From IMG/VR virus record IMGVR_UViG_3300047380_001405, positions 1-58,484 of that record: a DNA stretch of 58,484 bases. One strand, 5' to 3'. Below the pieces are notes generated by a model. The model was not told the DNA's origin. It did not search any database and saw only the letters and a program-made list of their open reading frames with translations. The position numbers were made by a program, and so were the translations under genes. Origin of the DNA: a virus (lineage: Duplodnaviria > Caudoviricetes). Below are positions 33,104 to 58,484 of this stretch, one piece after another; position 1 is the stretch's first letter, and every line of letters starts with the position of its first letter.

Positions 33104-33357
33104 AGAACTACAACTATCTGTCTATCAGGTATAACCGTAAGTTTTTCTCCGTTAATTCTTATGTCAGAGCCAGCAGCAGAGTCATAATAAATTTTATCGC
33201 CCTCAGACAAACCCTTAACATTTTCACCAGCTGAAACAACCTCAGCTAATTTATACCGTATAGCTTTGTCAGAAAATTCTGTTATTATAAAACCCCCCTT
33301 ACTTTTAACCTCTTCATTTTCTTTTCTAACAACCACAAATGATCCTATTGCTTTCAT
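33100..33357 (-). CDS. groES: Co-chaperonin GroES
   Basis: KSKGGFII mobile loop, VVSAGENV...EGDKIYY; adjacent to groEL. Confidence 0.8.
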   Translation of the reverse strand: MKAIGSFVVVRKENEEVKSKGGFIITEFSDKAIRYKLAEVVSAGENVKGLSEGDKIYYDSAAGSDIRINGEKLTVIPDRQIVVVL

Positions 33358-34943
33358 GCTCTTTTATTTGATATAGTACAGTTTGTAGTTAAAATTGTTA
33401 TCGAAACCGATATTGCGTTTTGCAGTGCGTTCTTAGTTACCTTGAATGGATCTATAATCCCCATAGAAAACATGTTCCCAAACTTCTTTCTTTTCACATC
33501 AAACCCGTAGTTTCTTCTTCTTACGGTATCTATTTTCTCTACAAATGAATCGTAACTCATTGAAGCGTTTTCTAGTATGTGCTTTATAGGGGAGATTAAT
33601 GCTGCTGATAAAATAGAACAAGCAGCTTTCATTTCATCGTCACTTTCTTTAAAGTATCTGTTATGCATTTCCATAGCTGCATTATACAATGCCACTCCTC
33701 CTCCTGCAACAATTCCTTCTTCAAGAGCAGCACGTGTCGCAAATATAGCATCCTCAACTCTATCCTTCTTCTCTTTCATTTCTACCTCAGTTAGCGCTCC
33801 TACATGTATAGCAGCAATCCCCCCCGAAAGCCTAGAAAGACGATCCTTATAATGCCACTCATTTGAAGAATCATCTTTTTTCTTTAAAATATTTCTAACC
33901 ATCTCAGCTCTTTCTTTAACAGCGTCAGCTGTTTTTTCAGAATTTAAAGTGAGTACAGTTTCTTTTTCTGTTGATACAGTCTTTTTTGCAGTTCCTAAGA
34001 AGCTTTCATCTACAGCAGAAAAGTCATTACCAGTCTCATCAGAAACAACAATAGCCCCCGTCATAATAGCTAGGTCTTCTAAAAGCTCAAATCTATTTAA
34101 CCCGACACCCTCTGGGTTTATGACATTAACCTTGATGACCCCTCTTGTCTTGTTCACATTAAGAAGCTGCATTACATTGTCTTCTATTTCAGAAACAATA
34201 AGTATTGGTTTTTTGTTTTGCATTGCAAACTGACAGCACGGTTCTATATCCTCCCAAGTGTTTATTTTTTTATCTGATATTAAAATAAAAGGATCTTCAA
34301 GAATAGCTTGTTTCTTCTCCACATCTGTAATCATGTATGGACTATGAAATCCTCTTTTAATTCTTGTGCCCTCTAATATTTCTGTGTGTGTATCTTTTGT
34401 CATTGACTCTTCTATAGTCACCACACCCTCTACGCCAACTTTAAGATACGCATCAGCTATAATTTCTCCAAGCTCAGAGTCGTTGTTTGCTGAAATGGTT
34501 GCTACGCTTTTTAAATTTTTTTCTGTAACCTCTCTAGACCTTTTCTTAATCTCTTCAATAACGTCATTCGATAAGGACTCTAGAGAGTTTCTAAGTTTTG
34601 TTACGTTTACGTTTTTTGACTCTATGTATTCAAATGAACGATTGACTAATTCTTGAGTTAGAACGATTGAAGTTGTTGTTCCGTCTCCTGCTTCATCAGC
34701 TGTCTTAATAGACGCTTGCTTTACTACTGTAGCTCCTAAGTGCTCTACGGGGTCTGACAAGTTTATACTCTTGGCAACTGTAACACCATCCTTAGTAACG
34801 TGGGGTCTACCTATTTCATCCTCTAAAATAACTGTATTACCTGCTGCTCCTAGTGTTTGTTTCACAGCATCTGCTAAAGTATCTATTCCTTTTTTTAGGC
34901 TGTGTCTAGCATCTTCATTGAAGTCAATGTTTTTTTCTATCAT
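33354..34943 (-). CDS. groEL: Chaperonin GroEL
   Basis: VTKDGVTVAK, AGDGTTT, ATISANND, KDRVEDA..ATRAALEEGIVAGGG, GIIDP.KV. Confidence 0.95.
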   Translation of the reverse strand: MIEKNIDFNEDARHSLKKGIDTLADAVKQTLGAAGNTVILEDEIGRPHVTKDGVTVAKSINLSDPVEHLGATVVKQASIKTADEAGDGTTTSIVLTQELVNRSFEYIESKNVNVTKLRNSLESLSNDVIEEIKKRSREVTEKNLKSVATISANNDSELGEIIADAYLKVGVEGVVTIEESMTKDTHTEILEGTRIKRGFHSPYMITDVEKKQAILEDPFILISDKKINTWEDIEPCCQFAMQNKKPILIVSEIEDNVMQLLNVNKTRGVIKVNVINPEGVGLNRFELLEDLAIMTGAIVVSDETGNDFSAVDESFLGTAKKTVSTEKETVLTLNSEKTADAVKERAEMVRNILKKKDDSSNEWHYKDRLSRLSGGIAAIHVGALTEVEMKEKKDRVEDAIFATRAALEEGIVAGGGVALYNAAMEMHNRYFKESDDEMKAACSILSAALISPIKHILENASMSYDSFVEKIDTVRRRNYGFDVKRKKFGNMFSMGIIDPFKVTKNALQNAISVSITILTTNCTISNKRA

Positions 34944-34987: not shown

Positions 34988-35908
34988 TTACTCATAAATG
35001 GCAGATGTGCAAGATTTACATATAGAATTCCATGCTTTTTGTAAAACTTCTTGGTGTTTTTGATTCATCCACACCTCTTTTAGTGAAAAATCTTTAAGAT
35101 TTGCAAATTTATGCTCCATGTGATAATCGTTGCAGCACAAGAAAAGCTCAGAGTTTGCGTTAATATGAAGCCACTCAGTATCTCTTTTACCCATACACCC
35201 AACTACTTTCTTGTCAGGATGAACAAACGCAGAGGAACTTATATATTCGTCAATCAATCCAACTCGATCTATAAGATGAGGTTGTTTGAATACGTTTGCA
35301 TTTGGAAACATTGACTTAGCTACCGCTACTTGTTCGTCTAGTTCTGTATCTGATATATCTGGAAACTTGGGTCCCTTGATCGCACCAGATTCTCTATCGT
35401 GTCCATTTATTTGAACTGAAAGTAGGTTTTTGTTTTTAAGGTTTGTGTAGGCATATGAAACATTTATTTTTAACTTTTGAAATAAGTTAGATTTCATGTT
35501 TGTTCTTTTAGCGAACAATTCAGCATCTGACCACACAGGGGCATTAACACAAACTCCCCAAACCACATCTTGGTATTTGTTTATTATATCTACTTTATCT
35601 GGTGTGAGAGGCGTTCCGTTGGTCAAAACCATCATGCCAAGCTTAAACTCTCTCAGAGTCTCTAGCATTTCCTCAAAATACCTATACAATAAAGCTTCGT
35701 TGTAATGAGAGCTATATATTCCATTAAACTCTGGAGAAACAATATCACCTTTGTTTTCATGGATTTGCTGAATTATATTTCTAAAGTCCTCTGGGGACAT
35801 TTGATTTATAGACTCCTTTGGATTACCCTCGTATGCTACTGGACAAAACCAACACCCAGCGTTACATAATCCATTAGGGTCTATCTGAGCATACCTAATT
35901 TTTGTCAA
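34988..35908 (-). CDS. Radical SAM protein with SPASM/twitch domain
   Basis: CNAGCWFC (CxxxCxxC), LTNG, C-terminal LCC.D...CKSC; TTG start overlaps the upstream stop (TTGA). Confidence 0.85.
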   Translation of the reverse strand: MTKIRYAQIDPNGLCNAGCWFCPVAYEGNPKESINQMSPEDFRNIIQQIHENKGDIVSPEFNGIYSSHYNEALLYRYFEEMLETLREFKLGMMVLTNGTPLTPDKVDIINKYQDVVWGVCVNAPVWSDAELFAKRTNMKSNLFQKLKINVSYAYTNLKNKNLLSVQINGHDRESGAIKGPKFPDISDTELDEQVAVAKSMFPNANVFKQPHLIDRVGLIDEYISSSAFVHPDKKVVGCMGKRDTEWLHINANSELFLCCNDYHMEHKFANLKDFSLKEVWMNQKHQEVLQKAWNSICKSCTSAIYE

Positions 35909-36072
35909 ACCTCTAGATTTTTAATTTTTTCTCCGTTATTTCTCCATCTGTAAGACACAGCAAAGAATAACAAATATAAATTAAACTCATTGAATTGAAG
36001 ATCTTCTGTTTCTTCAAAATACTCAAATCCCGTCATTAAGGCGTTTGGAAATATAAATGTAAATAATAACAT
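35905..36072 (-). CDS. Hypothetical protein (55 aa)
   Basis: MLLFTFIFPNALMTGFEYFEE...; preceded by TACCTTTG promoter box. Confidence 0.5.
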   Translation of the reverse strand: MLLFTFIFPNALMTGFEYFEETEDLQFNEFNLYLLFFAVSYRWRNNGEKIKNLEV

Positions 36073-36208
36073 GAATCAAAGGTAAAAAAGAAAAGGGAGC
36101 CTATAACCTAAATAAGATTTATAAAACTCCCGATCTCTCCATTGAAATAAACAAAAACAAACTCTAATGAGAAAAAACAAATGTACTTAAAAAAAACTAT
36201 ATTGCATA

Positions 36209-36703
36209 ATGGAATTGTCAAAAGAACGAATAGAATATTCTCAGAGATACGGAAATAATGCTGAAAGCATTTTTAGAAAGTTTATAGAGTCTAGAGGTCA
36301 CCAAGTAATTGATACGTCTGAATATGAAAACAAGATTGACAAGAAGGATTTCTACGTTGATATAAGTGGTAAACTATTTTCTTTTGATGTAAAAACAAAA
36401 CACTCTGAATCTATTTGGCTTGAGATTAAAAACATTCATAAGTATCCTGGATCACTATATGGGAAACAAACTCACTTTGCTTATTACTACCACAACTTAA
36501 ACATCCTTGCCATAGTTAAAAGAACTGACATGGTTGAATACGTTAAAGAGAACACAATAAAAGAATTCTACAAGGCATCAAAAGGAATACACGTTCCTTA
36601 CCACTACCTCTACAACAGAAAAGGACGTAAAGACATTCTCGTTAAAACCAAAAGAGAATTCCTTATGCTATCCGTTCCCTCCTACAGAGAATATACCTTA
36701 TAA
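36209..36703 (+). CDS. PD-(D/E)XK-family nuclease
   Basis: G..AE..F, DFYV...FDVKT, IWLE motifs. Confidence 0.6.
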   Translation: MELSKERIEYSQRYGNNAESIFRKFIESRGHQVIDTSEYENKIDKKDFYVDISGKLFSFDVKTKHSESIWLEIKNIHKYPGSLYGKQTHFAYYYHNLNILAIVKRTDMVEYVKENTIKEFYKASKGIHVPYHYLYNRKGRKDILVKTKREFLMLSVPSYREYTL

Positions 36704-37706
36704 AAAAACTATACCGCAAATAGCGCTAATTAAAAAAGGGGAGTTTAGGGGGAGAGAGTGTGTTAGACCTCTATAAAAAGATGGCATGAATTTGTGCCAA
36801 ATAACTGCATACATTATAATAGAACGTTAATTGTCTCAAAAGTATGCCACGTTTATATTTAGTGATCAGATATATTGAGGTTCTAGGTTATATATACAAT
36901 ACACGCACGGCAGCCCGTACAAAAACTGACTTTCTCTGACCCACCGCCCCTATTTTTTTATATTATTGTCACCAAATTTTCACCTTTTTGTCCTATATAT
37001 ATACATAAAAGCTAATTTCTACTACCTATAGATGGTTAATCAACAGGTTTTAAGATATTCTGAGATACTGAGAGACCTAGAATAACCCCTACACATTACA
37101 ATCTTTTCCTTAACGTATTGCCCATGTTATTGCATTATTCGTAATCAGCTAACTGGAGGAACTGGATAAAACTTAACACACTATATATCAATAGATTAAG
37201 AAATGCTGAACTGGAGGAAAAAATACAAAACCTATCATTTTCGGTTATATCCATTCGTGTAAATTATATTATTCTCAGTAAATCGATTAAATCGTTATGA
37301 ATATCTCATGAGAATATCGTAATGATTCTGTTAAAAAACTGAGAATCTTTCAACAAAAACAATTTAAGAAAACTTTAACATTGTACATACAAATGTCTGT
37401 TAGGTATTATAAACATTGACGTTAGAAAAATCAATGGTTAAAAATCAGAGCAATCTTAATTTAGATAGCTTTGTTTATTCAGATTCTTTATATAAGATTT
37501 GTGAATCGATTTGGACGGATGCCAATCTGTAGATTACTAATCGAGGGTGCAGAGAAACACTCAGAGATATCAGACCTAGCGGAACGGGAAGCTCGAAATT
37601 CTTACAACAATTGCCAAGATAGGCATGATGGTCGAGCGCCTGCTCCCAATGTTGAATACATCCTCCTCCAGATGGAGATAGGGACTGCGGCTAAGAGCCG
37701 TCAATA

Positions 37707-37847
37707 TTAAGATTAAGTAAGTATATCTGATGATGCTGGAGAGAGACAAAACTCCTAGACTCCTTTCGTAGAGGGGAACCTGTAATGGTCGAAACGTAAA
37801 CGGTATGCGGGCTACGAAAACCCGCTTACGTCATATACTAATCTTAA
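37707..37847 (+). ncRNA. Type I hammerhead ribozyme with an expanded stem II domain
   Basis: Stem I arm UUAAGAUU-(AAGUA)-AGUAUAU 37707-37726; core CUGAUGA 37727-37733; GAAA 37791-37794; stem III CGUAA/UUACG; GUC site with cut after 37832; 3' stem I arm AUAUACUAAUCUUAA 37833-37847. Confidence 0.85.
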
Positions 37848-37858
37848 AATTAATTACA

Positions 37859-38203
37859 ATGAACTTAAATAGCTTAAACAACAGAAAGCCTAATCTAAGA
37901 ACCTATACTGGTTATCTTGAAACAATTCAGAAACATATGAATCCAACGAAAGAGTACACTCACAGAAGTTTTGAAAGACACGAAATTTTTGAACAGGATG
38001 ATAGAACGTTGGTATTAAATATGATTCAATCAACCTATGGAACTGGAGATTGTGATTCTGAAATAACAAACATGCTGTTTGGACTGTTTGATGGTTACTG
38101 GTATGACAGACTTATGACTGATTTGCATGAGTCAAAAATATTCAAACCAAGTACACTAATTGAACTTTCTGAAATACTAGATAGAATAGAAGATTCCATT
38201 TAA
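37859..38203 (+). CDS. Early hypothetical protein
   Basis: Start reassigned to ATG 37859 (MNLNSLNN) by analogy with the other repeat units. Confidence 0.65.
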   Translation: MNLNSLNNRKPNLRTYTGYLETIQKHMNPTKEYTHRSFERHEIFEQDDRTLVLNMIQSTYGTGDCDSEITNMLFGLFDGYWYDRLMTDLHESKIFKPSTLIELSEILDRIEDSI

Positions 38204-38262
38204 TTATGGTCGGAGGGAGCAATCCCTCCAACGTCATATACTAATCTTAAATAATAATTAAA

Positions 38263-38457
38263 ATGGCACAATCAAGATTCACATCAATATTAAACAAAGC
38301 TAGAATTCTTCAAACAATTCATGCAAGTTGGTCACTACAGAAATGTGTTCAGCACCTAGAAAACAAAGGCGTTATAATACTTTCAGAATTTGAAAAAGGT
38401 ATGTTTTATACCCATGACGAAGAAACCTTAATTGGATTCGGTAAGTTATTTAATTAA
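38263..38457 (+). CDS. Early hypothetical protein
   Basis: 64-aa ORF filling repeat unit 2. Confidence 0.6.
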   Translation: MAQSRFTSILNKARILQTIHASWSLQKCVQHLENKGVIILSEFEKGMFYTHDEETLIGFGKLFN

Positions 38458-38514
38458 TTAAAATGGGGAGTTATCGCTCCCCTACGTCATATACTAATCT
38501 TAAAATTAATTACA

Positions 38515-38763
38515 ATGACACTCAAAAAGTTTTATTTAAAAAACTACCCAACAGATGATATGGGTACTGAAATTAATAGTAAATCTACTTTTCAAGGATT
38601 AATGAATACACTCGTTCAAAAAAATGATGTTTATGATTATATCGGTGTAGGAGATTCTATTGTTAGAGAAAGATTGTTTCAAGGATTATCAAAAGAACAA
38701 GTATCAGTTACTGCTGATAGCGATGTTTTTCTTGATATTATATACCATCTTTGGACATCCTAA
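38515..38763 (+). CDS. Early hypothetical protein
   Basis: YPTDDMG...DVYDYIGVGDSIVRERLF; unit 3. Confidence 0.65.
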   Translation: MTLKKFYLKNYPTDDMGTEINSKSTFQGLMNTLVQKNDVYDYIGVGDSIVRERLFQGLSKEQVSVTADSDVFLDIIYHLWTS

Positions 38764-38829
38764 ATTCAAAAGTATAGGGGTAGAAATGCCCCTACGTCAT
38801 ATACTAATCTTAATTTAAATATAAATATT

Positions 38830-39732
38830 ATGAAAACTCTTGTAAACACACACATGAACCATGTAAACAATGACGAAGTAAATGCTATACTAGACCAATT
38901 CGGTTTGAACTGGAAAGTAGAGAAACGTCCATTGTTTTTTCAGGCAACAGAATCAATTGATGTCCCAACAGACTATTTTGGTGTAATCAGAACTGATAAC
39001 AATGATTGTTTTGGTGCTATGACTAATCAATATGAGCCATTTCAAAACTCTGAGTTAGCTGAATTAGTACTAAATATATCTGATGTTATCGATAAGCCTG
39101 TAACACATGGTAAAGTGTTCAAAGGAGGTCGTAGAGTTGCTATGCAAATTGAGTTAGAACCAATCAAGGTTGGTTTTGACACAATCAAACGCTATGCTAC
39201 TGCAATTAATTCTCATGATGGTTCAACGTCATTAAGATGGGGAACTACAGGATACACAGTATCGTGTGACAATCAATTCAGTGCATTACGTAAGGACTTG
39301 CAAAGCAGTGCTAAACACACAGGTAATATGAGACAATTGATTGATAACTCATTCAGGACTCTCGAAAGACTTGAAAAAGCAGACACGACCTTGTATGATA
39401 CGTTTAGAAAAATGACTGAAGTCCCAGTGACAACAGACTTTGTTAATGACGTTATCAAGAAAATCAGCAAAGTTGATTTGAAGACACCTACACGTGAAGC
39501 ACAAAAGTTGTATAGTACTAGAGCAATCAACAAAAGCCAAGACTTATTCTTGTCTACTGCAAAGGAGATGAGTTACAAAGGTCAGACGCTATGGGGATTA
39601 TTCTCAGGTATTACACACTACACTACACACAAAGGTGGTTCAGATAGAACTAGAGAGGAATCAAAGTTAATTGGTGGATTGCAAAAAATCGACCAAACAA
39701 TCTTTGACCAATTCTCTGAACTAGTTTCTTAA
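38830..39732 (+). CDS. DUF932/DUF945-family protein
   Basis: GLNWKVEK.PL, YEPFQN, NSHDGS.S, CDNQ, TLWGLF.GIT.Y..H motifs. Confidence 0.8.
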   Translation: MKTLVNTHMNHVNNDEVNAILDQFGLNWKVEKRPLFFQATESIDVPTDYFGVIRTDNNDCFGAMTNQYEPFQNSELAELVLNISDVIDKPVTHGKVFKGGRRVAMQIELEPIKVGFDTIKRYATAINSHDGSTSLRWGTTGYTVSCDNQFSALRKDLQSSAKHTGNMRQLIDNSFRTLERLEKADTTLYDTFRKMTEVPVTTDFVNDVIKKISKVDLKTPTREAQKLYSTRAINKSQDLFLSTAKEMSYKGQTLWGLFSGITHYTTHKGGSDRTREESKLIGGLQKIDQTIFDQFSELVS

Positions 39733-39789
39733 TTAATCGGGGGGTAGCAATACCCCCTACGTCATATACTAATCTTAATTTAAAACAAA

Positions 39790-39957
39790 ATGAAAGCAAA
39801 TTGGAAAGACAATTTTGAGAGCCTATACAATGACATTGTAGGTGTTGTTACAGTAGATGGCGAAGAGATGACAGATGGAGAGTGTGTTGATGCCTTATTT
39901 AGTGTATTAAAAAAGTATCGAGGCAAATCAGACGAACAGACAGAAGTAAAATTTTAA
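39790..39957 (+). CDS. Early hypothetical protein (55 aa)
   Basis: MKANWKDNFESLYNDIVGVVTVDGEEMTDGECVDALF...; translated by hand; 26 nt after the predicted cut in repeat 5. Confidence 0.6.
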   Translation: MKANWKDNFESLYNDIVGVVTVDGEEMTDGECVDALFSVLKKYRGKSDEQTEVKF

Positions 39958-39972
39958 CTTAAATTAAATAAA

Positions 39973-40128
39973 ATGAAACGTAAAATAGTTTTTATACAAT
40001 ACAATGTTTGGAATGATAAATATCAGATCGTAGATAGTTGGTTTCCACCGAAAAAAATAATAAAGGAATTCAAATATCATGCGAGTGCTATTAAATACAA
40101 ATCCAAATACAATCAGGGGCTAATTTAA
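39973..40128 (+). CDS. Early hypothetical protein (51 aa)
   Basis: MKRKIVFIQYNVWNDKYQIVDSW...; translated by hand; AT-rich start context. Confidence 0.5.
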   Translation: MKRKIVFIQYNVWNDKYQIVDSWFPPKKIIKEFKYHASAIKYKSKYNQGLI

Positions 40129-40164
40129 GCCCCTACGTCATATACTAATCTTAATTAAAATCAT

Positions 40165-40599
40165 ATGAAAATTGATTACATCAAGTATGAAAAATCTCAT
40201 GGTGGTAGAGAAAACTATTTTCCTGTAGGTAGGAAAAAAGACTTAGTTGGTGATTGTGCTATTAGGGCAATCGCATTGGCACTAGAGATGGATTATATGC
40301 AAGTGCTGAGAGAACTCATGAATTTAGCAGTTGAAAAATTTGGTATACCATATGCTAACAGTCAACGAGTTTATGAGGATTACTTAAACAGTAAAGGATG
40401 GGTGAAAAAACCCCTGAAAGAAGGTAAAACGTGGAAACCTTTATACAAACACAAGCGTAGATTAGAACAGAACAAAAACTATATATTCTATGTTAGAGTT
40501 GGTTATCAAACACATCTTACTTCTGTAGTAAAAGGAATCAATAAAGATACATGGCTATGTCAAGATAGAATGGCGTATGCTATGTACGATAAACCTTAA
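40165..40599 (+). CDS. Early protein of the DC.IRA family
   Basis: GDCAIRAIALA...HLTSV..G...DTW; possible Cys-His-Asp triad. Confidence 0.6.
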   Translation: MKIDYIKYEKSHGGRENYFPVGRKKDLVGDCAIRAIALALEMDYMQVLRELMNLAVEKFGIPYANSQRVYEDYLNSKGWVKKPLKEGKTWKPLYKHKRRLEQNKNYIFYVRVGYQTHLTSVVKGINKDTWLCQDRMAYAMYDKP

Positions 40600-40665
40600 T
40601 TTAAATCGAGGGGTGTATTAACATCCCTCACGTCATATACTAATCTTAAATTAAATATAAATATT

Positions 40666-41187
40666 ATGAATGCAATAGAATTAATTAAAAAAGAGATTCG
40701 AATATTCGAATCAAAAGTGACTGCTAGGGAATTAGCTGAGGCAATCAAGATGGTTACAGTAGACCTCATAGATGAACTCGCAGAACTATATGAACACGAT
40801 GATGAAGACCAAATTGAATTAGTTAATGGCTTTGTGCTACACCAGTCATCAGAAGATGGTGGCGGGTGTGTGGATATTGTCCACGAAGAGGATTGGTTTA
40901 ATGTCATTAACTGTTCTATATCAGAAGACACTCAAAGTGTTTGTTTTGACCCTGTCGAAAAGTCAGAAGTCATCACAGAGGCTATTAAAATAGCGAACAG
41001 AAAGACTTTTATCTTAAAACAAACAGTATCATATGAAGTGAAACTAGAAGTGGAGGATGAAAGTGTGGAAGATGTTATTGCAAAAGCAGAAAATGGAGAG
41101 TTTGATGAAGATTTATGTTACCTTGAAACTGAGTTTAAAGCAATAGATTCAAGAGAGTATGAATTTTCTGCTAGTGAAAAAGAATAA
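40666..41187 (+). CDS. Early highly acidic protein
   Basis: 173 aa, very Asp/Glu rich; unit 7. Confidence 0.6.
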   Translation: MNAIELIKKEIRIFESKVTARELAEAIKMVTVDLIDELAELYEHDDEDQIELVNGFVLHQSSEDGGGCVDIVHEEDWFNVINCSISEDTQSVCFDPVEKSEVITEAIKIANRKTFILKQTVSYEVKLEVEDESVEDVIAKAENGEFDEDLCYLETEFKAIDSREYEFSASEKE

Positions 41188-41242
41188 TTTAAAAGGGGAC
41201 TTCGTGTCCCCTACGTCATATACTAATCTTAAATTAAATAAA

Positions 41243-41476
41243 ATGGAAATTAATTTAACACCACAGGACGTGGTAAAAATGTCTGAGAACAAGGTTAATG
41301 AATGCTTTGATATATTCAAAGAGCCATTAAACTTAGAGGAGGCAAGTAGCCTTATTAATGCAATTCTTCCGCAATTAGAACAGGTAATATCTGACACGTT
41401 GCAGGAGCAGATTTATGATGACCTCATGGATAAGAATGGAGGTCATGATTGGATTGACGAAAAGCTGTCGAAATGA
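41243..41476 (+). CDS. Early hypothetical protein
   Basis: Start reassigned to ATG 41243 (MEINLTPQ), after repeat 8. Confidence 0.6.
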   Translation: MEINLTPQDVVKMSENKVNECFDIFKEPLNLEEASSLINAILPQLEQVISDTLQEQIYDDLMDKNGGHDWIDEKLSK

Positions 41477-41670
41477 CAATACTAGATATGCAACGGCTAG
41501 GAAATTCAGGGGAGGAAATTGTTTCTCTCCTGAATGATATAATTCATAGTGTTAAAAACAAAAAGTCTATAGACGGCTACAAGTTTGAAAACAATAATGA
41601 AAGGATAGAGCATATAGAAGAAACTACTTCTATGATTCTTCAACAATTATGTAATTTAAAATTAAAATAA
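41473..41670 (+). CDS. Hypothetical protein
   Basis: ATGA-coupled 65-aa ORF. Confidence 0.55.
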   Translation: MTILDMQRLGNSGEEIVSLLNDIIHSVKNKKSIDGYKFENNNERIEHIEETTSMILQQLCNLKLK

Positions 41671-41671
41671 T

Positions 41672-41902
41672 ATGAATAAACTAGAAACAATTAAAGGATA
41701 CTACGCTAAGAAAGATAACCTCTACCTGTCCTATAAAAACACATGGACGAAGGATATTAGAAAAGCAGTACTGTTTGATCATAAAGAATCAGCAGGAGAT
41801 TCAATTGCAAGACGACCCTCTGGAAGAGTCGTAGTGTCTATTGATGTAAATCATGTTGTTGATAAGAGAACAGAGTATGAAAACATCGAAACAGATGTTT
41901 AA
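41672..41902 (+). CDS. Hypothetical protein
   Basis: 76-aa ORF ending just before the hairpin and ribozyme. Confidence 0.55.
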   Translation: MNKLETIKGYYAKKDNLYLSYKNTWTKDIRKAVLFDHKESAGDSIARRPSGRVVVSIDVNHVVDKRTEYENIETDV

Positions 41903-41933
41903 ACCCAACAATTATGGGAGGAGCAATCCTCCC

Positions 41934-41984
41934 TCTGTCGATAGGTGTGTGCCTATCCTGATGAGTCCGAAAGGACGAAACAGA
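41934..41984 (+). ncRNA. Type III hammerhead ribozyme
   Basis: UCUG-UC^ (cut after 41939), stem I GAUAGG-UGUGUG-CCUAUC, core CUGAUGA 41958-41964, stem II GUCC-GAAA-GGAC, then GAAA-CAGA; all core nucleotides canonical. Confidence 0.95.
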
Positions 41985-42009
41985 ATTATTAATTAAACAA
42001 TAAACAATT

Positions 42010-42512: not shown

Positions 42513-42552
42513 AAATAGGGGAAGCCGAAAACCTTACAGAGTAGGCGTATTT
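42513..42552 (+). ncRNA. Small pseudoknotted RNA motif, RAGATH-18-like
   Basis: AAAUA-GGGG-AA-GCC-GAAAA-CCUU-ACAGAGUA-GGC-G-UAUUU: GGGG/CCUU and GCC/GGC cross-pairing; family assignment is from memory of the consensus. Confidence 0.45.
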
Positions 42553-42565
42553 AAATTTTAATATA

Positions 42566-42892
42566 ATGAAAACAAAACGAAAAATGAAAAGAAACGTTAA
42601 GTACTATCACACTAGACTGTCACAAGACAAGATACATTTTATTAAGAATCTTGGAACTAATGATACGGCAAAGATTTCTAGAGAATTTGAAAAGAAATAT
42701 GGAGCCCCTCTTAGAGAGTCAACGATTATTAATACGCTCAAAAGAAAAGTGGCTAAGGTTGAGAACAACAATAGCAATCAAACAAAAAGAGTGGAGATTG
42801 TTGCAAAATACGATGGTATGGAGTACAAATTGAAGCACTTTTCTAACAAATTAATCATTGATATGGTTTTACAAAACCTAAATAATGATTAA
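42566..42892 (+). CDS. Basic hypothetical protein, possible HTH
   Basis: TAKISREFEKKYG..LRESTI. Confidence 0.5.
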   Translation: MKTKRKMKRNVKYYHTRLSQDKIHFIKNLGTNDTAKISREFEKKYGAPLRESTIINTLKRKVAKVENNNSNQTKRVEIVAKYDGMEYKLKHFSNKLIIDMVLQNLNND

Positions 42893-52338: not shown

Positions 52339-52372
52339 AGGGGGCAAAATACGTAATTGTCTCCTTTTTTTT
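52339..52372 (+). terminator. Rho-independent terminator between convergent modules
   Basis: AGGGGGCAA...UUGUCUCCU followed by a U-tract. Confidence 0.65.
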
Positions 52373-55300
52373 ATTTATAATCCCTCAAGAATACTTTTAT
52401 AGCTTTTACTGGCAGGCTTTTATCTAAAAGTTCTTTAGCGTTGTTCATGTACCTGACAAACTCCTTTGGGTCTCCCCCCGAAACATTGTCATATATATAC
52501 TTTAAATGTATAAGCTGTGACTCAATTTCTCTTTCATAAAACAAATCAATAACTTCATAAGGAACCCTTTGAGCCCCTTTTTCAGCATTCTGCTCCATAT
52601 TTATATATTTCACAAAGCGCTGTCTTTTATTTTCTTGATCGTATTTATCAGCAGGATATTTTTTTATTATTTCGCTTTCTAGTTTTGAAATGAATGATTC
52701 ATAATTAGGTTTTTCTTTTGACATTTCATCCCTAATCATCATTTTAATTTCTTGATCTTTACTGTATTCATCACCTTTAGCTTTGATTAGTTGATCAGTC
52801 ATTTCCTCTTTTGCCTTATATCTTTTTAAATTACTGTTTGTATAACGCTTAAATTTTTTCAAAGAGTTTTCTCCTAATATCTTTGGTAGGTTTTTTAACT
52901 CATCAGATTCTTTGGTGACTATTCCGTTTGCTACCGAATAAAATATAGCAAGTCCAGGATTTGTAGTTGGAGTTGTTACTATTTTCTCCATAGCAACCTT
53001 TAATTTTTTGGGAGATAAATTCATTTTTTCTCCTATTTGTTTATATATACCCTCGACTTTTTCGTCATACAATCCTTTTTTATATTCAGGTATATCTTTT
53101 GGACCTCTCCATATATCTTGATCGTAGAATACATCTTTATTGTCAAATAGAGCTCGTCCAGATGCAAGTATAGGAACTGTTGATTCTACTCTTCCACCAC
53201 CAAAAAATGGTACTGACCATCTGAGAGCCTTGAAGCTTTGCGAATAATCGAATTCTTTACCAAGCATCACCTGTTCAACTTTTTGTTCTGAAATTGAAAA
53301 GACTACATTTAAAAGAGGTAGCTTTCTTATTCTGTAATATTCAAGTTCTCCTTTTTTGTTTTTGTTACCTGTAAAGAACACAAAATAATTAGCTCTCTCA
53401 TACTCACTCAACCCCTCTAAAGCATCTTTAAGCTTTCTTTTTTTCTCTTCCTCATCTCCATCAAAAGCAAGCATTGCCATAGCGAGAGATCCTGTGTGCA
53501 AAATAGCTGATGCTGCCATCATTTCTACAACCTTGCTAGCAAATATTTTAGGGTTTTTTCTGAAGCCATCATAAAATCTTCTTAAGCCTAAAAAACTCGC
53601 ATTTGTATACGGCATAACCAAATCTAAAGATTTTGAAAATGTACCACCCTGATTATAATCCATAACTTCACGAGCTTCTCTTGTGGCTGTTTCTTTTATA
53701 TCCTGTAACTGTTCAGGGCTTGGAAGCTTACCATTCTCTTTTTTAAATTTACTTATCTCTTTGCTTTTTGTTCTTTCATAGACGGCTAATCTAAAAGCCA
53801 ACTCAGAGGCATCTCCTAAATATCCAAACGCTTTTCCATAGTAATTGACTAAAGAGTAAAAAGGTTTTGCAAACTTCTTTGCTTTGTCAATATCGTTTTG
53901 TGTGAGATTAGCTTGTTCAGCCATAAAAAGCATTTTACCTCCATTTTCAAAATACTCTCTTTTAATTCTTCTATATTCACTTGTGTTCGCAATCTTTCTT
54001 AGAAAGTTGAGAGTAAAATCTTTAGCTAAAGGTAAAGCTCCAAATAAAGCTGACCTCCCATATATATTTGAGTTTAATAATATGTTTTGATAATCCATTG
54101 GTATGTTAGACAATACAAACAATGGGTTAGCTGCGGTTGCAAAGAATCTAAGTATAGGAGAAAATGATCCTAATCTAAGAAGTGATTTCACGGTTGGACT
54201 TAAAGACTTTGTTTTTAAATTTAAAAGTTGATTTCTAGCCTCCTTCTTCATCACCATCTTATACTTGATACCGTTTTTGAAGAATGATATTTCTTTATAA
54301 CCTAGAGGTATTTTAGCATCATCGTATTTAAACTTCAAGGCACCAGTTGTTTTTTTGCCAATAACAGGATTGTCTAGTATAAATTCATTAAAATCCTCTT
54401 TATTTTCTCTACTTACATAATCATCGTATACAGCGTTTAACAATTCATTTTGAGCTACTCTGAATTTAGTCATATTCACCTGCAACATCATCATGTATCT
54501 CAAGTCTTGAACTATATTTCTTTCGTTGTTTTCTGTTAGCGTCATGATGCCGTTACTAGAAATTCCTAGTTTTTCTGAAAAAGAATCTATATCATCTTCC
54601 GACCAGTTTTCTGTTTCATTTTCAAGTACAAATTTCAATGTCTTTATTGGCATGTACTCTAGCTGTCTTATTGATTCATATGATTCAGAGGTTAGTAGCC
54701 CACCATCATACATCTCTTTAAGCATCTGTCTAGACATGTCAAAATACTTTGAAGCTCTGTCATTAAGCTTTTTAAATAATTCAGGATTGTCTTTAGATAA
54801 GCTTTTTAAATAAGCTTCAGATTCCTTTGTATTATACCCATCGGTTCCTGTGTACTCTTTGAATTTTTTACCATCTCTGGATAATCTGTTTCTATTTATT
54901 TCTATGATTCGTCTAGACAAGACAATCATTTCAAGGAGAGATATCTCGCTCTTTTTAAGACCACCAAGTATTTCTTCCTCATATTCTTGAAAAACATCAG
55001 TTGCATAGCCTTTAGCCCCAGCAATGTTTACTATTTTATTTAAAACCCTGTTTTGTTTTGACAGCGTATCGTATCCTTCATATATTCTTTTAATGCTTGC
55101 CTGACTGTCTGTAAGTTGTTCGCCAAAAACATTTTTTAAGAATTTTACCATTTGTGTTTTAAAACCTTGCTTTGTGTTTTTTAAGGCTTGATCATTCTTT
55201 TTCCGTATTGAATTACCTCTGTCTAAGCTTTCTTGTTCTTCCTTTGTAAGCTTACTTTTTCTTACTCTTGCTGGTTCTGCTTGTTCACTAACCTGCTCAG

Positions 55301-58300
55301 ATACATTTGTAGACATTTGACCTCCACCAAGCCAGTTTAAATATTTTGCTTTAGCTTGATCTCCATATTTTTCTACATAATTTTCATAACCTACATTTTT
55401 GCTACTTATGAAAGGAAATAAATCTTTAGCACTGTAAGCTTTGTCTAAAAGTAAAAGCTCCACATCTTCTGTAGACCTAATGACAAATTTGTATGATGGG
55501 TGATAGTCTGGATCACCAGGCTTTGCTTCCTCCAAAGAAAGATCTCCCTTTGTTCTAACATAAGATATAACATCTCCATAGTCGTGACCAACCGATAATG
55601 GTTCTGACAATTCGTTAGCTAATTCAGTGAAATTCGGAAGGTTTCCGAATTTATTTTTTGGCACTTTTGCATTCCCAAGTAATGTGTTTAAAAATGATTT
55701 TCTTTGCTCAAAGGTTGAGTTATCACTCCCTATAGTCTTTCTGATTGCATCAGCTATAGATTTTGCGTTTTTAGCTTCTGCTAATGAGGTAAATTCATCT
55801 TTAAAAGATTTAGTGTCCTTCACACTAAGAGCCTTGAGAACTCTTTTATAAGCGTCTTCTGTAGATATGTTCTCTTGCGAAATACTTTTTTCAACTAAAT
55901 TAATAGCCTCAGAAAGCATGTTGTTATTTGACATGTGAGACTCTGTAGACCCGAATGCAATCGTAACATACCTATATCCATCATCATTTTTTACAGCAGA
56001 ATTTATTATTCTTGATCCTGATGTTTTTTTATTAGCAGCCCAAACAGAGTTTGTTATTGCAGGGAATAGGATTCCTCCTAAATATTCTTTTCCTTGTACA
56101 AACCCACCGACTAATCTGTCTGAAAAAGTAAGATGAACGGTTTTGTTTGCTATGTCGGCTATTGTAGCATCTTTAACTTTTGATTCTACGCCTTTGTGCC
56201 TCTTTATCCCTAAGTCTACAAGAATACTTTTTCTTGGCTTGTCTTTTAGATTGTTGACTTTGTTGCCTGTAGGCTTAGCTGTTTCGTTTATTTTCTCTGA
56301 TAAGACTTCTAACTCTTTAGTATCTACTCTTTTTCCTTCTGTAACCTTTTGCTGAAACCTATTTAATACATCTATAACTTCAGCGTCAGTAGCGGCATCT
56401 GTAAATACTGTACCTAAATTTAATTTTTTAGCAACTGAATTAATCCACTGTAGTATTTGTGTTTTAACACTTGGCGTTAATTTATCATAGTTAGCCGAAA
56501 GTTTACCTAAAATGTTTGCTAAAGCCTCTTCATTTTGTACAGACTCTTCGTAATTAGTAAGCAAGTCTTGTATGTCACTGTAAATTTCTTTACCCTCTTT
56601 AGTTGTTAATACAGCATCTAGCATTCTTTTTGTTAGCGCTTGTAATTCCGTATCGCTTTTTATTGCATTTAATACAGCTGCGTGAAAAGCCTCATGCCCA
56701 ACATCATCGTTTGTAGCAACATCCAGCGCTATATGAATTGTGTTGTCTTTGTTTACATATATTGCTTTGGTGTCAGTATCTGCCTCTGGAACCGAAGATA
56801 CCATATCTTCTTGAGTTTCATAAACAAAAACCCTTGTCCCATCACCTACGTCTTTTAATGCTGCTTCTGCGTTATCTGCTCTATTTAAGATGTCACTTTT
56901 TTCATTTTCTTCATTCATCAAGTAGGGTCCTCTATCTATAAGAGAAGGACTCATGCCTTTTTTGTAAGATCTTTTCCTTCCAGGAGCTTTCTTTTTTCTT
57001 TCAGGCTGTTGCTCTTGCTGCTCTTCTGTTTTAGCAGTCTTTGATATCTCAGTAAGCCTGTTATTAATTTCTGTTATTCTTTCTTCAAAAGGAGCTGTCA
57101 TTGATTCATCAACACCTTTCTTTTGTTCATTCAATGATTCTCTTTCTCTCAAGAGATCGAAAGATTCCTTTCTACTTTCTGGTGATATGTTTTTTGGTAT
57201 TTTACTTGAGATGCTTTTAAAATAATCTAAATTCTTTTTATTTTTATCATATTCTTCTTTTGTTATAGCTCCTTTTTTAAGAGCTATTCTCTGCTGCATC
57301 TCATGATATATTATCATCTCGGGGTTTTGAACATAATCATCTATAATATCAAATAATTTTTGTTCTAGCTTGTATCCTTTTCTTTCTCTTATTCCATTTA
57401 AGGCGGCTGGTACTGTAGCCATAACAAACCCGCCTATAGCTTCTTGAGCACCAGATCTCAGCACTTGACTTGCAAAATCCGTTAATGATCCTGGCGTTTC
57501 AAACATTTTTTTGTCTTTAACGCCATTATATAATGATTTAACAGTAACATCTGATATTTCTTGTAGAGCGCCCGTCTCAAATTCAGCAAGACCACCTGTT
57601 CCTATTCTTATAGCTCCCTTTGCTAGGAGGCTTTTTATTTCACGATCAGCAAGTTCCGTAAAGGTTTTAGCTGTAATCTTTTTACTTTTAGTTTTAAGAA
57701 TATTTGATAAAACAGTCTTCGTTAAACTGCTTCCGTTTACAATATTTCTAAATCCATAATTTTCTAATACTCCATTTATGACAGCTATAGGAAGTTTTAC
57801 AGCATATTTTTCTGTTTCACTTATCCCATCAAAATCTGGATTGTTCTCCATTTCTTTTGACACTGCATCTGAAGCCTGTAACCCAAAGCCTAATATTCTT
57901 GTATACTTATTTCCTATCATTTCAGGAAGACTTTTAGCTAATCCGCTAAATGCACCACCAAAAAATGTTTGTTCCCACTTATTCATGTACTCTTGAGTAG
58001 TGCTTGAAACACCAGCGAATTCTAAAGCACCTTTTCTAATCTCTGGAAGTAATTGTTTTTTAGAGTATTTTCTAGCATAATCTAATATTTCATCTTCCGA
58101 CTTACCTTCAGATTTTAACCTATCATACGTCTTTGGGCTTAGTCCATTTCTTGGACTGAAATAAGTCATACCGTCTATCATCAAATCAACAGCTCCCGAT
58201 GCCTCTGACCCAACTCCCATCATGAAAGAATTATACATAGCTCCTAAAGGGGAGCCTTCTTTAGATTTTTCACTAAGGATGTTTGCTGTGGCTGCTTCTA

Positions 58301-58484
58301 TTGAAAATACTTTAGCTTCAAGTTGATCCTTAAACTGCTTCATTTTATTATCAGCAGCTTTGTTTTCTTCTATAATTTTGTTGTATTCTTCAATTTGTCT
58401 ATTCAATTTTTCAGGATAAGGCTGGTCTCCTAATAATTCAATCTGCTGCTCTATCCTTTTCTCCTCGTCCTGTAAGTAAGAATT
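52371..58484 (-). CDS. Giant virion ejection/polyvalent protein, 5'-truncated (>2037 aa)
   Basis: Frame is open to the window end (26 more codons beyond 58406); HEAFH zincin motif; LPD38-like C-terminal region. Confidence 0.65.
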   Translation of the reverse strand, partial: NSYLQDEEKRIEQQIELLGDQPYPEKLNRQIEEYNKIIEENKAADNKMKQFKDQLEAKVFSIEAATANILSEKSKEGSPLGAMYNSFMMGVGSEASGAVDLMIDGMTYFSPRNGLSPKTYDRLKSEGKSEDEILDYARKYSKKQLLPEIRKGALEFAGVSSTTQEYMNKWEQTFFGGAFSGLAKSLPEMIGNKYTRILGFGLQASDAVSKEMENNPDFDGISETEKYAVKLPIAVINGVLENYGFRNIVNGSSLTKTVLSNILKTKSKKITAKTFTELADREIKSLLAKGAIRIGTGGLAEFETGALQEISDVTVKSLYNGVKDKKMFETPGSLTDFASQVLRSGAQEAIGGFVMATVPAALNGIRERKGYKLEQKLFDIIDDYVQNPEMIIYHEMQQRIALKKGAITKEEYDKNKKNLDYFKSISSKIPKNISPESRKESFDLLRERESLNEQKKGVDESMTAPFEERITEINNRLTEISKTAKTEEQQEQQPERKKKAPGRKRSYKKGMSPSLIDRGPYLMNEENEKSDILNRADNAEAALKDVGDGTRVFVYETQEDMVSSVPEADTDTKAIYVNKDNTIHIALDVATNDDVGHEAFHAAVLNAIKSDTELQALTKRMLDAVLTTKEGKEIYSDIQDLLTNYEESVQNEEALANILGKLSANYDKLTPSVKTQILQWINSVAKKLNLGTVFTDAATDAEVIDVLNRFQQKVTEGKRVDTKELEVLSEKINETAKPTGNKVNNLKDKPRKSILVDLGIKRHKGVESKVKDATIADIANKTVHLTFSDRLVGGFVQGKEYLGGILFPAITNSVWAANKKTSGSRIINSAVKNDDGYRYVTIAFGSTESHMSNNNMLSEAINLVEKSISQENISTEDAYKRVLKALSVKDTKSFKDEFTSLAEAKNAKSIADAIRKTIGSDNSTFEQRKSFLNTLLGNAKVPKNKFGNLPNFTELANELSEPLSVGHDYGDVISYVRTKGDLSLEEAKPGDPDYHPSYKFVIRSTEDVELLLLDKAYSAKDLFPFISSKNVGYENYVEKYGDQAKAKYLNWLGGGQMSTNVSEQVSEQAEPARVRKSKLTKEEQESLDRGNSIRKKNDQALKNTKQGFKTQMVKFLKNVFGEQLTDSQASIKRIYEGYDTLSKQNRVLNKIVNIAGAKGYATDVFQEYEEEILGGLKKSEISLLEMIVLSRRIIEINRNRLSRDGKKFKEYTGTDGYNTKESEAYLKSLSKDNPELFKKLNDRASKYFDMSRQMLKEMYDGGLLTSESYESIRQLEYMPIKTLKFVLENETENWSEDDIDSFSEKLGISSNGIMTLTENNERNIVQDLRYMMMLQVNMTKFRVAQNELLNAVYDDYVSRENKEDFNEFILDNPVIGKKTTGALKFKYDDAKIPLGYKEISFFKNGIKYKMVMKKEARNQLLNLKTKSLSPTVKSLLRLGSFSPILRFFATAANPLFVLSNIPMDYQNILLNSNIYGRSALFGALPLAKDFTLNFLRKIANTSEYRRIKREYFENGGKMLFMAEQANLTQNDIDKAKKFAKPFYSLVNYYGKAFGYLGDASELAFRLAVYERTKSKEISKFKKENGKLPSPEQLQDIKETATREAREVMDYNQGGTFSKSLDLVMPYTNASFLGLRRFYDGFRKNPKIFASKVVEMMAASAILHTGSLAMAMLAFDGDEEEKKRKLKDALEGLSEYERANYFVFFTGNKNKKGELEYYRIRKLPLLNVVFSISEQKVEQVMLGKEFDYSQSFKALRWSVPFFGGGRVESTVPILASGRALFDNKDVFYDQDIWRGPKDIPEYKKGLYDEKVEGIYKQIGEKMNLSPKKLKVAMEKIVTTPTTNPGLAIFYSVANGIVTKESDELKNLPKILGENSLKKFKRYTNSNLKRYKAKEEMTDQLIKAKGDEYSKDQEIKMMIRDEMSKEKPNYESFISKLESEIIKKYPADKYDQENKRQRFVKYINMEQNAEKGAQRVPYEVIDLFYEREIESQLIHLKYIYDNVSGGDPKEFVRYMNNAKELLDKSLPVKAIKVFLRDYK

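Follow-up and report, generated by a model that had tools for sequence, protein, structure and literature searches.

The early operon of a marine phage of the class Caudoviricetes (Duplodnaviria; IMG/VR record IMGVR_UViG_3300047380_001405) begins with the catalytic core of a single hammerhead ribozyme, which is followed by eight identical copies of a 20-nucleotide (nt) sequence complementary to the arms of this core. Only the first copy adjoins the core; the other seven stand apart from it, each at a junction between genes. We favour, with moderate confidence, the interpretation that these seven core-less sites are substrates of the one hammerhead, which would cut the early message into gene-sized pieces. 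This interpretation starts from the anatomy of the motif, its conservation, the covariation of arms and sites, and the layout of one core with many sites, all of which are seen in the sequence and in the comparison of several lineages. Throughout, the window is the whole contig of 58,484 bp; coordinates are window positions and refer to the (+) strand unless stated otherwise.

Enzyme strand and sites in the window

The 20-mer (ACGTCATATACTAATCTTAA) occurs in eight exact copies, all on the (+) strand, starting at positions 37828, 38231, 38484, 38794, 39759, 40135, 40630 and 41213; the chance expectation is 0.01 copies, and none of 100 shuffles got to eight. An earlier reading of the sequence, referred to here as the original prediction, had described the copies as free of mismatches and always intergenic, and both the pattern search (eight matches, all (+)) and the map of open reading frames (ORFs) bear this out. 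All eight lie between ORFs, 25–31 nt upstream of an ATG, and each is preceded by a G+C-rich hairpin whose sequence varies from site to site (Table 1). The match positions fix the predicted cut positions, which therefore agree with those given in the original prediction. Hammerheads cut after N-U-H triplets in which H is any base other than G; the triplet here is GTC throughout, at the 8 sites of the window and the 36 of five relatives.

The letters of the enzyme strand are as first described (Table 1). The core segment C3-U4-G5-A6-N7-G8-A9 is complete as CTGATGA (CTGACGA in the relatives), and G12-A13-A14 and the A15.1-U16.1 pair are present, with A37794 opposite T37831 and, at every one of the eight sites, opposite the T that precedes the C. 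Proximal stem I forms seven of seven pairs at all eight sites, the longest distal helix measures 8–9 bp, and stem III comprises 6 bp at the adjacent site, 5 bp at five core-less sites and 4 bp at two. The pairing scheme proposed at the outset, with 7 + 8 bp of stem I around a 5-nt bulge and 4–6 bp of stem III, was recovered at each site. Thirteen of the 15 stem I pairs are A-U, as read directly from the sequence, and the invariant block of the repeat coincides with the region that pairs with the enzyme: both ends of the block are the limits of pairing. Predicted cofold energies for binding of the released enzyme to sites 2–8 range from −12.0 to −14.8 kcal/mol.

We are confident that the adjacent hammerhead is a real, selected element. 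A strain variant in X4, one of four RNA-labelled marine runs discussed below, has seven changes within 37731–37756 and leaves the arms, the GAAA and the site unchanged. One change places an A at N7 (37731), which the consensus allows; the other six fall in the first stem II hairpin, which by our reading they preserve (G-U to U-A, G-C to G-U and one new G-C pair). Sites 2–8 have no core of their own, as a pattern scan of the (+) strand from 37734 to 41957 found no other CTGANGA. The original prediction that only the first copy sits beside a core therefore stands for the eight copies; farther downstream, a ninth junction holds its own complete hammerhead.

Table 1. Features at the head of the early operon
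Feature	Positions	Strand	Predicted cut after	Details
Putative host (Bacteroidota-type) promoter	37470..37501	+		TTTG, 19 nt, near-consensus −7 box; from reading and alignment with relatives
Conserved structured non-coding leader	37505..37706	+		~200 nt; kept in all 5 aligned lineages
Stem I, enzyme side	37707..37726	+		Distal arm TTAAGATT (37707–37714), 5-nt bulge AAGTA (37715–37719), proximal arm AGTATAT (37720–37726); pairs 8 + 7 bp with 8/8 sites
Hammerhead core C3–A9	37727..37733	+		CTGATGA
Irregular stem II domain	37734..37790	+		Extra U, possible G-C closing pair 37735/37790, two inserted hairpins, ACC-TGTAAT-GGT
Core G12–A14 and stem III enzyme strand	37791..37799	+		GAA, then ACGTAA from A15.1 (GAAA 37791–37794, CGTAA 37795–37799)
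Loop III	37800..37825	+		Hairpin GCGGG...CCCGC at 37807–37825
Site 1 (adjacent, cis)	37826..37847	+	37832	TTACGT-C, then ATATACTAATCTTAA
Site 2	38212..38250	+	38235	Hairpin and core-less 20-mer
Site 3	38465..38503	+	38488	Hairpin and core-less 20-mer
Site 4	38777..38813	+	38798	Hairpin and core-less 20-mer, 5′ of DUF932 gene
Site 5	39729..39778	+	39763	Hairpin and core-less 20-mer
Site 6	40114..40154	+	40139	Hairpin and core-less 20-mer
Site 7	40608..40649	+	40634	Hairpin and core-less 20-mer
Site 8	41194..41232	+	41217	Hairpin and core-less 20-mer
Ninth junction	41916..41986	+	41939	Similar hairpin (41916–41933), then self-contained type III hammerhead

Recurrence and covariation in related phages

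Loci of related phages were gathered through homologues of the DUF932 gene (38830–39732) and of the first early gene, and through patterns in the leader. Besides the window, five lineages reach the head of the operon: L050 (equivalent to L127, L130, L131 and L139), L128 (equivalent to L133 and L138), L132, L129 and L141. Each of the five has exactly one core, just 5′ of its first site, and a further 4–8 core-less sites. Together with the window, the six lineages contain 6 cores and 44 sites, 38 of them core-less, and the core always stands 5′ of all sites. Proximal stem I pairs at seven of seven positions at all 44 sites, and stem III has at least four contiguous pairs at all 44. The original prediction had pointed to relatives as the place to look for repeats that lack an enzyme and for covariation of the two. 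In all five lineages whose contig reaches the operon head, repeats and a complementary CUGAYGA/GAAA strand are kept together, and arms and repeats covary: AGTATAT faces ATATACT in the window, and AGTAATG or AGTAATA faces TATTACT in the relatives. The change between window and relatives affects three stem I pairs beside the cut, and 38 of 38 core-less sites match the enzyme of their own genome. Site variants also still pair, with C-to-T changes opposite G in L050, L128, L132 and L141.

Stem II is canonical in the relatives, where it closes on A9 and G12 and covaries (GACC/GGTC versus GTCC/GGAC). In all five, loop II and the long bulge in stem I could pair over 7–10 bp, which resembles the tertiary contacts of natural hammerheads; each complement by itself is non-significant, as shuffles match the observed length in 10 to 257 of 1,000 trials, and only the recurrence counts.

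Stem III is informative because it fits core-less sites better than the adjacent site in some phages. The L050 arm, ACGTTGG, forms seven of seven pairs with three of six core-less sites and at least five Watson–Crick pairs with all six, and makes only three Watson–Crick pairs and one wobble with its own adjacent site. The same holds in a second hammerhead family (L143, L149 and L150), in which the arms, stem II and site sequence are all unlike those of the window family. L143 has one compact canonical core and eight sites, and its arm pairs over 5 bp with each of the seven core-less sites and over 3 bp with its own. If cutting were confined to the adjacent site, a better fit to core-less sites than to the own site would be difficult to account for. 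The cis stem III is thus weaker than the core-less helix in L050 and L143, as would fit a design for action in trans; it is not weaker in the window. In L149 and L150, A/G variation in the sites lies opposite U. In all three members of this family, the stem I strand 3′ of each site reads TATAGC, then AGGAGG, then GCTAT, so that the 5′ end left by a cut could fold into a hairpin with a Shine–Dalgarno-like loop. Judged from sequence, this family may infect another group of hosts and may couple cutting to translation.

Complete hammerheads occupy equivalent junctions elsewhere. The ninth-junction hammerhead of the window matches Rfam family RF00008 with 45.4 bits (E = 4.8e-9), below the gathering score of that family (48.5). 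The junction 5′ of the DUF932 gene, which has a core-less site in the window and in L050, carries a hairpin and a type III hammerhead in L051 and L052 and a type I hammerhead in L059 and L060. These are 4 of the 22 loci inspected; the others have neither type of hammerhead at this position. In more distant relatives a single locus can contain as many as three complete hammerheads of type I, which stand 15–30 nt 5′ of genes, and L052 has a fourth complete hammerhead, of type III. The order of hairpin, cut, leader and ATG is the same at these hammerheads as at the core-less junctions. Core-less sites hence stand, by sequence position, where complete ribozymes stand in other phages, and the use of the same slots implies that cutting just 5′ of early genes is a recurrent trait of the phage group.

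Other repeats and arrangements were seen in the wider set. The L003-type repeat, a third site variant, has a CTC triplet, and in one L003/L016 copy 5 nt are inserted precisely where the proximal stem I box meets the distal one; among 45 IMG/VR loci with the L003-type 16-mer, the only true relatives are L016 and L020, and neither contig reaches the operon head. A complete hammerhead with the same arms is preceded, in L086 and L071, by a site copy that lacks a core (TGTC, then TTAACCATAAA; 690–740 in L086, about 2909 in L071). The L086 copy is directly 3′ of a host-type −7 box, and a site ahead of its enzyme would be the reverse of the usual order. L055–L062 share another motif, AAACTATATAATATG, the last bases of which are the start codon; it occurs up to nine times per locus and is probably a shared translation-start leader; the A/U-rich leaders 3′ of the window cut sites partly resemble it. 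The genes between the repeats vary in identity and order among L050, L128, L129, L132 and L141, and L128, L129 and L141, for example, do not share the first gene 3′ of the ribozyme; the hairpin–site cassettes probably also act as recombination joints that shuffle early genes. The hairpin of site 2 is the same as that at the matching junction of L050, after the first gene, and the bases just 3′ of the cut differ.

In IMG/VR the 20-mer found a single near-identical contig, and the first early gene found only the L050 contig; searches with leader patterns added L138, L139 and L141. Megablast and blastn of the region against the GenBank phage collection gave no match, and tblastn of the DUF932 protein against the same collection found distant actinophages only. 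A leader-related scan of genome contigs returned one chance match, in an enterobacterial genome, and distant homologues of the first gene (L134–L137) have no repeat and no plausible core.

Proposed mechanism and alternative explanations

In the mechanism that we propose, host RNA polymerase would start at the Bacteroidota-type promoter near 37470–37501 and transcribe, in this order, the structured leader of about 200 nt, the type I hammerhead enzyme strand (37707–37799) and the early operon. The hammerhead would first cut the adjacent site after C37832, freeing a leader–ribozyme RNA of about 325 nt in which the leader would stay attached to the ribozyme after self-cleavage. At each of the seven core-less sites, the freed enzyme strand would form 7 + 8 bp of stem I and 4–5 bp of stem III, the latter perhaps stacked on the hairpin of the site, and would cut after the GUC. 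Each piece would carry a protective hairpin and a cyclic phosphate at its 3′ end, and the next would start with a 5′-OH and a uniform A/U-rich leader of 25–31 nt before the ATG. We infer that the core is active in the window phage, that sites 2–8 are cut, that the reaction is intermolecular with turnover and that the resulting ends play a part in RNA stability. A stronger version, in which the leader–hammerhead is a true multiple-turnover RNA endonuclease acting in trans, an RNA-only counterpart of RNase III with co-evolving ‘alleles’ of arm and site, is one that we advance tentatively and would not yet bet on. The window family has at least two site sets with a matched enzyme, and the second family has a different set, so that in this stronger version each phage’s ribozyme would cut its own messages only. 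The conserved leader may then stabilise the enzyme or help to recycle it.

Several observations weigh against cutting of the core-less sites by this hammerhead. The original prediction called the enzyme strand complete; all core bases are there and the arms pair with the 20-mer, but the segment that it labelled as the stem II domain contains no normal stem II. Folded alone, these 57 nt form three hairpins and no closing helix. Positions 10.1 and 11.1 are U and C, and a G-C pair is available only if an extra U is allowed after A9; an extra base at this point is tolerated in a viroid hammerhead. A fold that contains stems I and III lies only 1.8 kcal/mol above the minimum free energy fold, and enforcing the stem II closing pairs (G-C plus ACC/GGT) costs a further 5.5 kcal/mol over that fold. 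No Rfam hammerhead matched at 37707–37847 with E values up to 10 when 35800–41500 and 37500–37870 were scanned, and none matched the L129 enzyme (E up to 10); the miss at the type I enzyme probably reflects the size of the insertions in its stems II and III.

Further difficulties concern turnover and specificity. After self-cleavage the enzyme retains its own stem III partner, which in the window is held in a hairpin-closed 6-bp helix. As this is stronger than the 4–5 bp available at sites 2–8, product inhibition is expected and the own strand must be displaced; and because each transcript has one enzyme and seven further sites, complete processing requires a turnover of at least seven per enzyme. 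Arm positions 15.5–15.7 mismatch most core-less sites in L128, L132 and L141. The crude cofold energies do not distinguish own-genome from foreign sites, and we give them no weight for specificity. Moreover, if something else keeps all copies identical, covariation of the enzyme with core-less sites is expected as well. The co-change alone is not decisive, because the enzyme might then follow only its neighbour.

Contigs from the four RNA-labelled runs, which were available as contigs only and show no RNA ends, strand or expression level, span six of the eight predicted cuts (sites 1, 2, 4, 5, 6 and 7), extending 31 nt or more to either side of the cut, at a depth of 2–19. Uncut molecules therefore exist, as RNA or as carried-over DNA; the contigs give no sign of complete processing, and DNA carry-over is a possible source of them. 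Contig breaks at the repeats and a 965-nt ‘skip’ in X3 are assembly effects of the 31-nt repeat and were given no weight. The central claim of the original prediction, that one ribozyme cuts the early polycistron at many sites, thus gains from the recurrence, the arm covariation and the better core-less fit in L050 and L143, and is held back by the irregular stem II and by the contigs that run across predicted cuts.

The alternative that survives best, although we consider it unlikely, is that only the adjacent site is cut, the first copy serving the cis hammerhead as substrate strand, and that the 20-mer is kept identical for some other reason: as a promoter of an unrecognised phage polymerase or factor, as a site for a regulator of translation or stability, or as a block of homology for the shuffling of cassettes. 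A strictly conserved 20-mer that follows a hairpin and stands about 26 nt 5′ of every early gene does look like a promoter. Phage-specific promoters are conserved repeats before genes, as in T7-type phages, and T4 has promoter–stem-loop repeats; promoters and polymerases likewise evolve by co-change of all copies with the specificity partner. The longer identical flanks shared by subsets of the sites, the variable gene order between repeats, which makes recombination at them likely, and the contigs that bridge predicted cuts also fit this alternative.

The search for a host-type promoter in the 20-mer points the other way. The Bacteroidota sigma-A consensus consists of TTTG at −33 and TAnnTTTG at −7, about 19 nt apart. 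The window promoter aligns with TTTG-N20-TATATTTG in L050, L128 and L129; these three fit the strict pattern, which is one base off in L132 and in the window. Genome-wide, the strict pattern is not enriched (3 matches versus 6.1 expected). Between 37800 and 41300 it has no match, and the 20-mer itself lacks TTTG, so no 20-mer or flank carries a strict host promoter. An RNA polymerase family was matched by none of 24 protein queries against PHROGs and Pfam, which covered part of the proteome. That leaves room for a polymerase hidden in a giant protein of 2,316 aa with no assigned function, a further point against our interpretation; this protein has no DFDxD motif, and a query of its C-terminal 2,037 aa had no PDB sequence match. 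A study of phi14:2, a crAss-like phage of Cellulophaga, found no motif common to the regions upstream of its early transcripts (bioRxiv 10.1101/2020.03.07.982082), and hence no known virion-polymerase promoter resembles the 20-mer.

The sites themselves also look more like pairing partners than like promoters. Their conserved block equals the enzyme footprint at both ends, the stem III arm matches bases that are found only in core-less sites (in L050, and in L143 of the second family), and site variants remain compatible with wobble pairing. The 5-nt insertion in the L003/L016 copy would be better tolerated by pairing than by a promoter, and complete hammerheads take the place of the 20-mer at the ninth junction and at junctions of relatives.

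Quite improbable, in our judgement, is that the core-less sites are functionless leftovers of once-complete hammerheads, or else functionless duplicates of junction cassettes, that gene conversion keeps alike. Such leftovers could be imagined from the distant relatives with complete hammerheads at these junctions and from L086 and L071, each with a core-less copy beside a complete ribozyme with the same arms. However, the eight copies are identical and the adjoining hairpins and leaders differ, so that a homogenised tract would need sharp edges exactly at the footprint, and the layout persists in six lineages and in a second family of different sequence.

We give still less credence to an antisense small RNA at each junction, encoded on the (−) strand like the Bacteroides FopS family. 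Such an RNA would stop at the hairpin, and its pairing target would be the early gene’s leader together with its start codon. Weak (−)-strand matches to FopS lie over several junctions (16–28 bits; sites 3, 5 and 8 among them), and five of the nine junction hairpins score as intrinsic terminators on the (−) strand only (38465–38482, 38774–38795, 40114–40135, 41194–41212 and 41916–41933); on the (+) strand none of the nine was flagged, and no U run lies 3′ of them. The scores are, however, far below the gathering score of 56 for this family (RF04319), with E values from 0.11 to 9.2, and the T-rich (−)-strand tails are accounted for by A-rich gene ends in an A+T-rich genome. An antisense RNA would also leave the complementary core-bearing strand and the covariation unexplained. 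The junction hairpins could, in addition to any role in processing, stop antisense transcription.

That the hammerhead-like match arose by chance beside an unrelated repeat is hardly credible: the core is short, chance matches occur in large databases (as noted in PMC3088659) and our own loose hammerhead scan gave many spurious matches, but the core, arms and layout are conserved with covariation in five further lineages.

Relation to known systems and genome context

Hammerheads between phage genes have been described before. Perreault et al. (2011; PMC3088659) reported tandem complete hammerheads that flank genes in polycistronic RNAs of prophages and phages and that cut in vitro, in three arrangements. 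L052, L060, L065 and the ninth junction of the window follow that pattern. In that system each cut site has its own core, whereas the window has one core and seven sites that consist of the substrate half only. A parallel in the separation of strands is the discontinuous hammerhead in the 3′ untranslated regions of mammalian Clec2 messenger RNAs (mRNAs; Martick et al. 2008, as summarised in PMC2920678), in which enzyme and substrate segments likewise lie apart on the RNA. PMC2920678 also mentions related mRNAs with a substrate and no ribozyme and raises action in trans as a speculative possibility; whether small ribozymes act on other RNAs in nature is presented there as an open question ever since the split Clec2 hammerhead was found. 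In the Clec2 case, which is eukaryotic, each enzyme has one substrate and both are on one transcript; here the setting is a phage operon with an ordered set of 5–9 sites per enzyme and covariation across lineages.

Engineered trans-cleaving hammerheads use an enzyme strand with both arms and a substrate with an NUH triplet between them, and versions with an extended or discontinuous stem I exist. The phage elements share this strand layout, together with a bulged stem I and A/U-rich arms; unlike the man-made versions, the natural enzyme retains its own product strand through loop III. A further analogy, drawn in the original prediction, is the processing of T7 early mRNA, in which RNase III cuts the polycistron at hairpin-marked intergenic sites into stable, gene-sized RNAs. 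The difference is that RNase III is a host protein that recognises double-stranded RNA, whereas a phage-encoded RNA would here provide both recognition and catalysis. RNase P RNA is a natural RNA enzyme that acts in trans, and the reaction of small nucleolytic ribozymes, which are generally regarded as cutting once and in cis, is drawn in cis in PMC6765202; the purpose of small ribozymes in bacteria and phages is described there as still undefined. What we propose would resemble RNase P RNA in that one catalytic RNA serves many substrate RNAs with turnover, and would differ from it in that RNase P is a large ribonucleoprotein that works by hydrolysis.

We found no description of one core with many core-less sites in full-text searches of the literature, which did not cover subscription journals. 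If our interpretation is correct, the hammerhead would be the first small ribozyme in nature to serve several targets with turnover, and phage hammerheads would gain a clear function in the protein-free processing of early mRNA. The elements would also offer natural design rules for trans-cleaving ribozymes, namely a bulged, A/U-rich stem I and a substrate hairpin stacked on a short stem III. The phage group is a compact test case, with one enzyme strand, 5–9 natural targets and natural specificity variants, and the complete hammerheads at equivalent junctions serve as built-in controls.

The operon head lies between two gene blocks of opposite orientation. Two open-ended (−) ORFs, at 1–837 and 52371–58484, fuse across the contig ends into a single stop-free frame of 2,316 aa, so that the contig probably represents a complete genome that is circularly permuted. 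The giant protein is of virion type, with weak LPD38 and SHOCT matches only. The terminase, the portal and one virion protein resemble families of Flavobacterium, Cellulophaga and Tenacibaculum podophages; none of the podophages of these genera that are near the window by terminase in the GenBank phage collection has the locus. Late and structural genes occupy the (−) strand up to 36072 and are followed by an ORF-poor stretch. The (+)-strand block, with small genes and then replication genes, runs from 37859, and the ribozyme and its sites are at its head.

The leader between promoter and enzyme strand has 34 pairs in an RNAalifold consensus, six of them with compensatory changes, and matches no Rfam family at E values up to 10. 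The roughly 770 nt on the 5′ side of the promoter (36704–37470) contain few ORFs and are partly similar to L050 900–1330, with which they share TATATATA-rich blocks and a G+C-rich hairpin (36904–36921 in the window). Small contigs from the RNA-labelled runs fall on this stretch, X1 at 37088–37319 and X4 at 36892–37114, and it could contain a genome end or an origin. On the (−) strand, 33354–34943 encodes a GroEL-type chaperonin (PHROG 5725, E = 2.8e-143), and the neighbouring gene at 34988–35908 has weak radical-SAM matches. A scan of the whole window at Rfam gathering scores gave a single match, to DUF805b RNA (RF02914), at 42515–42547 on the (+) strand (42.7 bits, E = 7.9e-9; gathering score 35.6); the match is just 5′ of the gene that starts at 42566, two junctions past the ninth-junction hammerhead.

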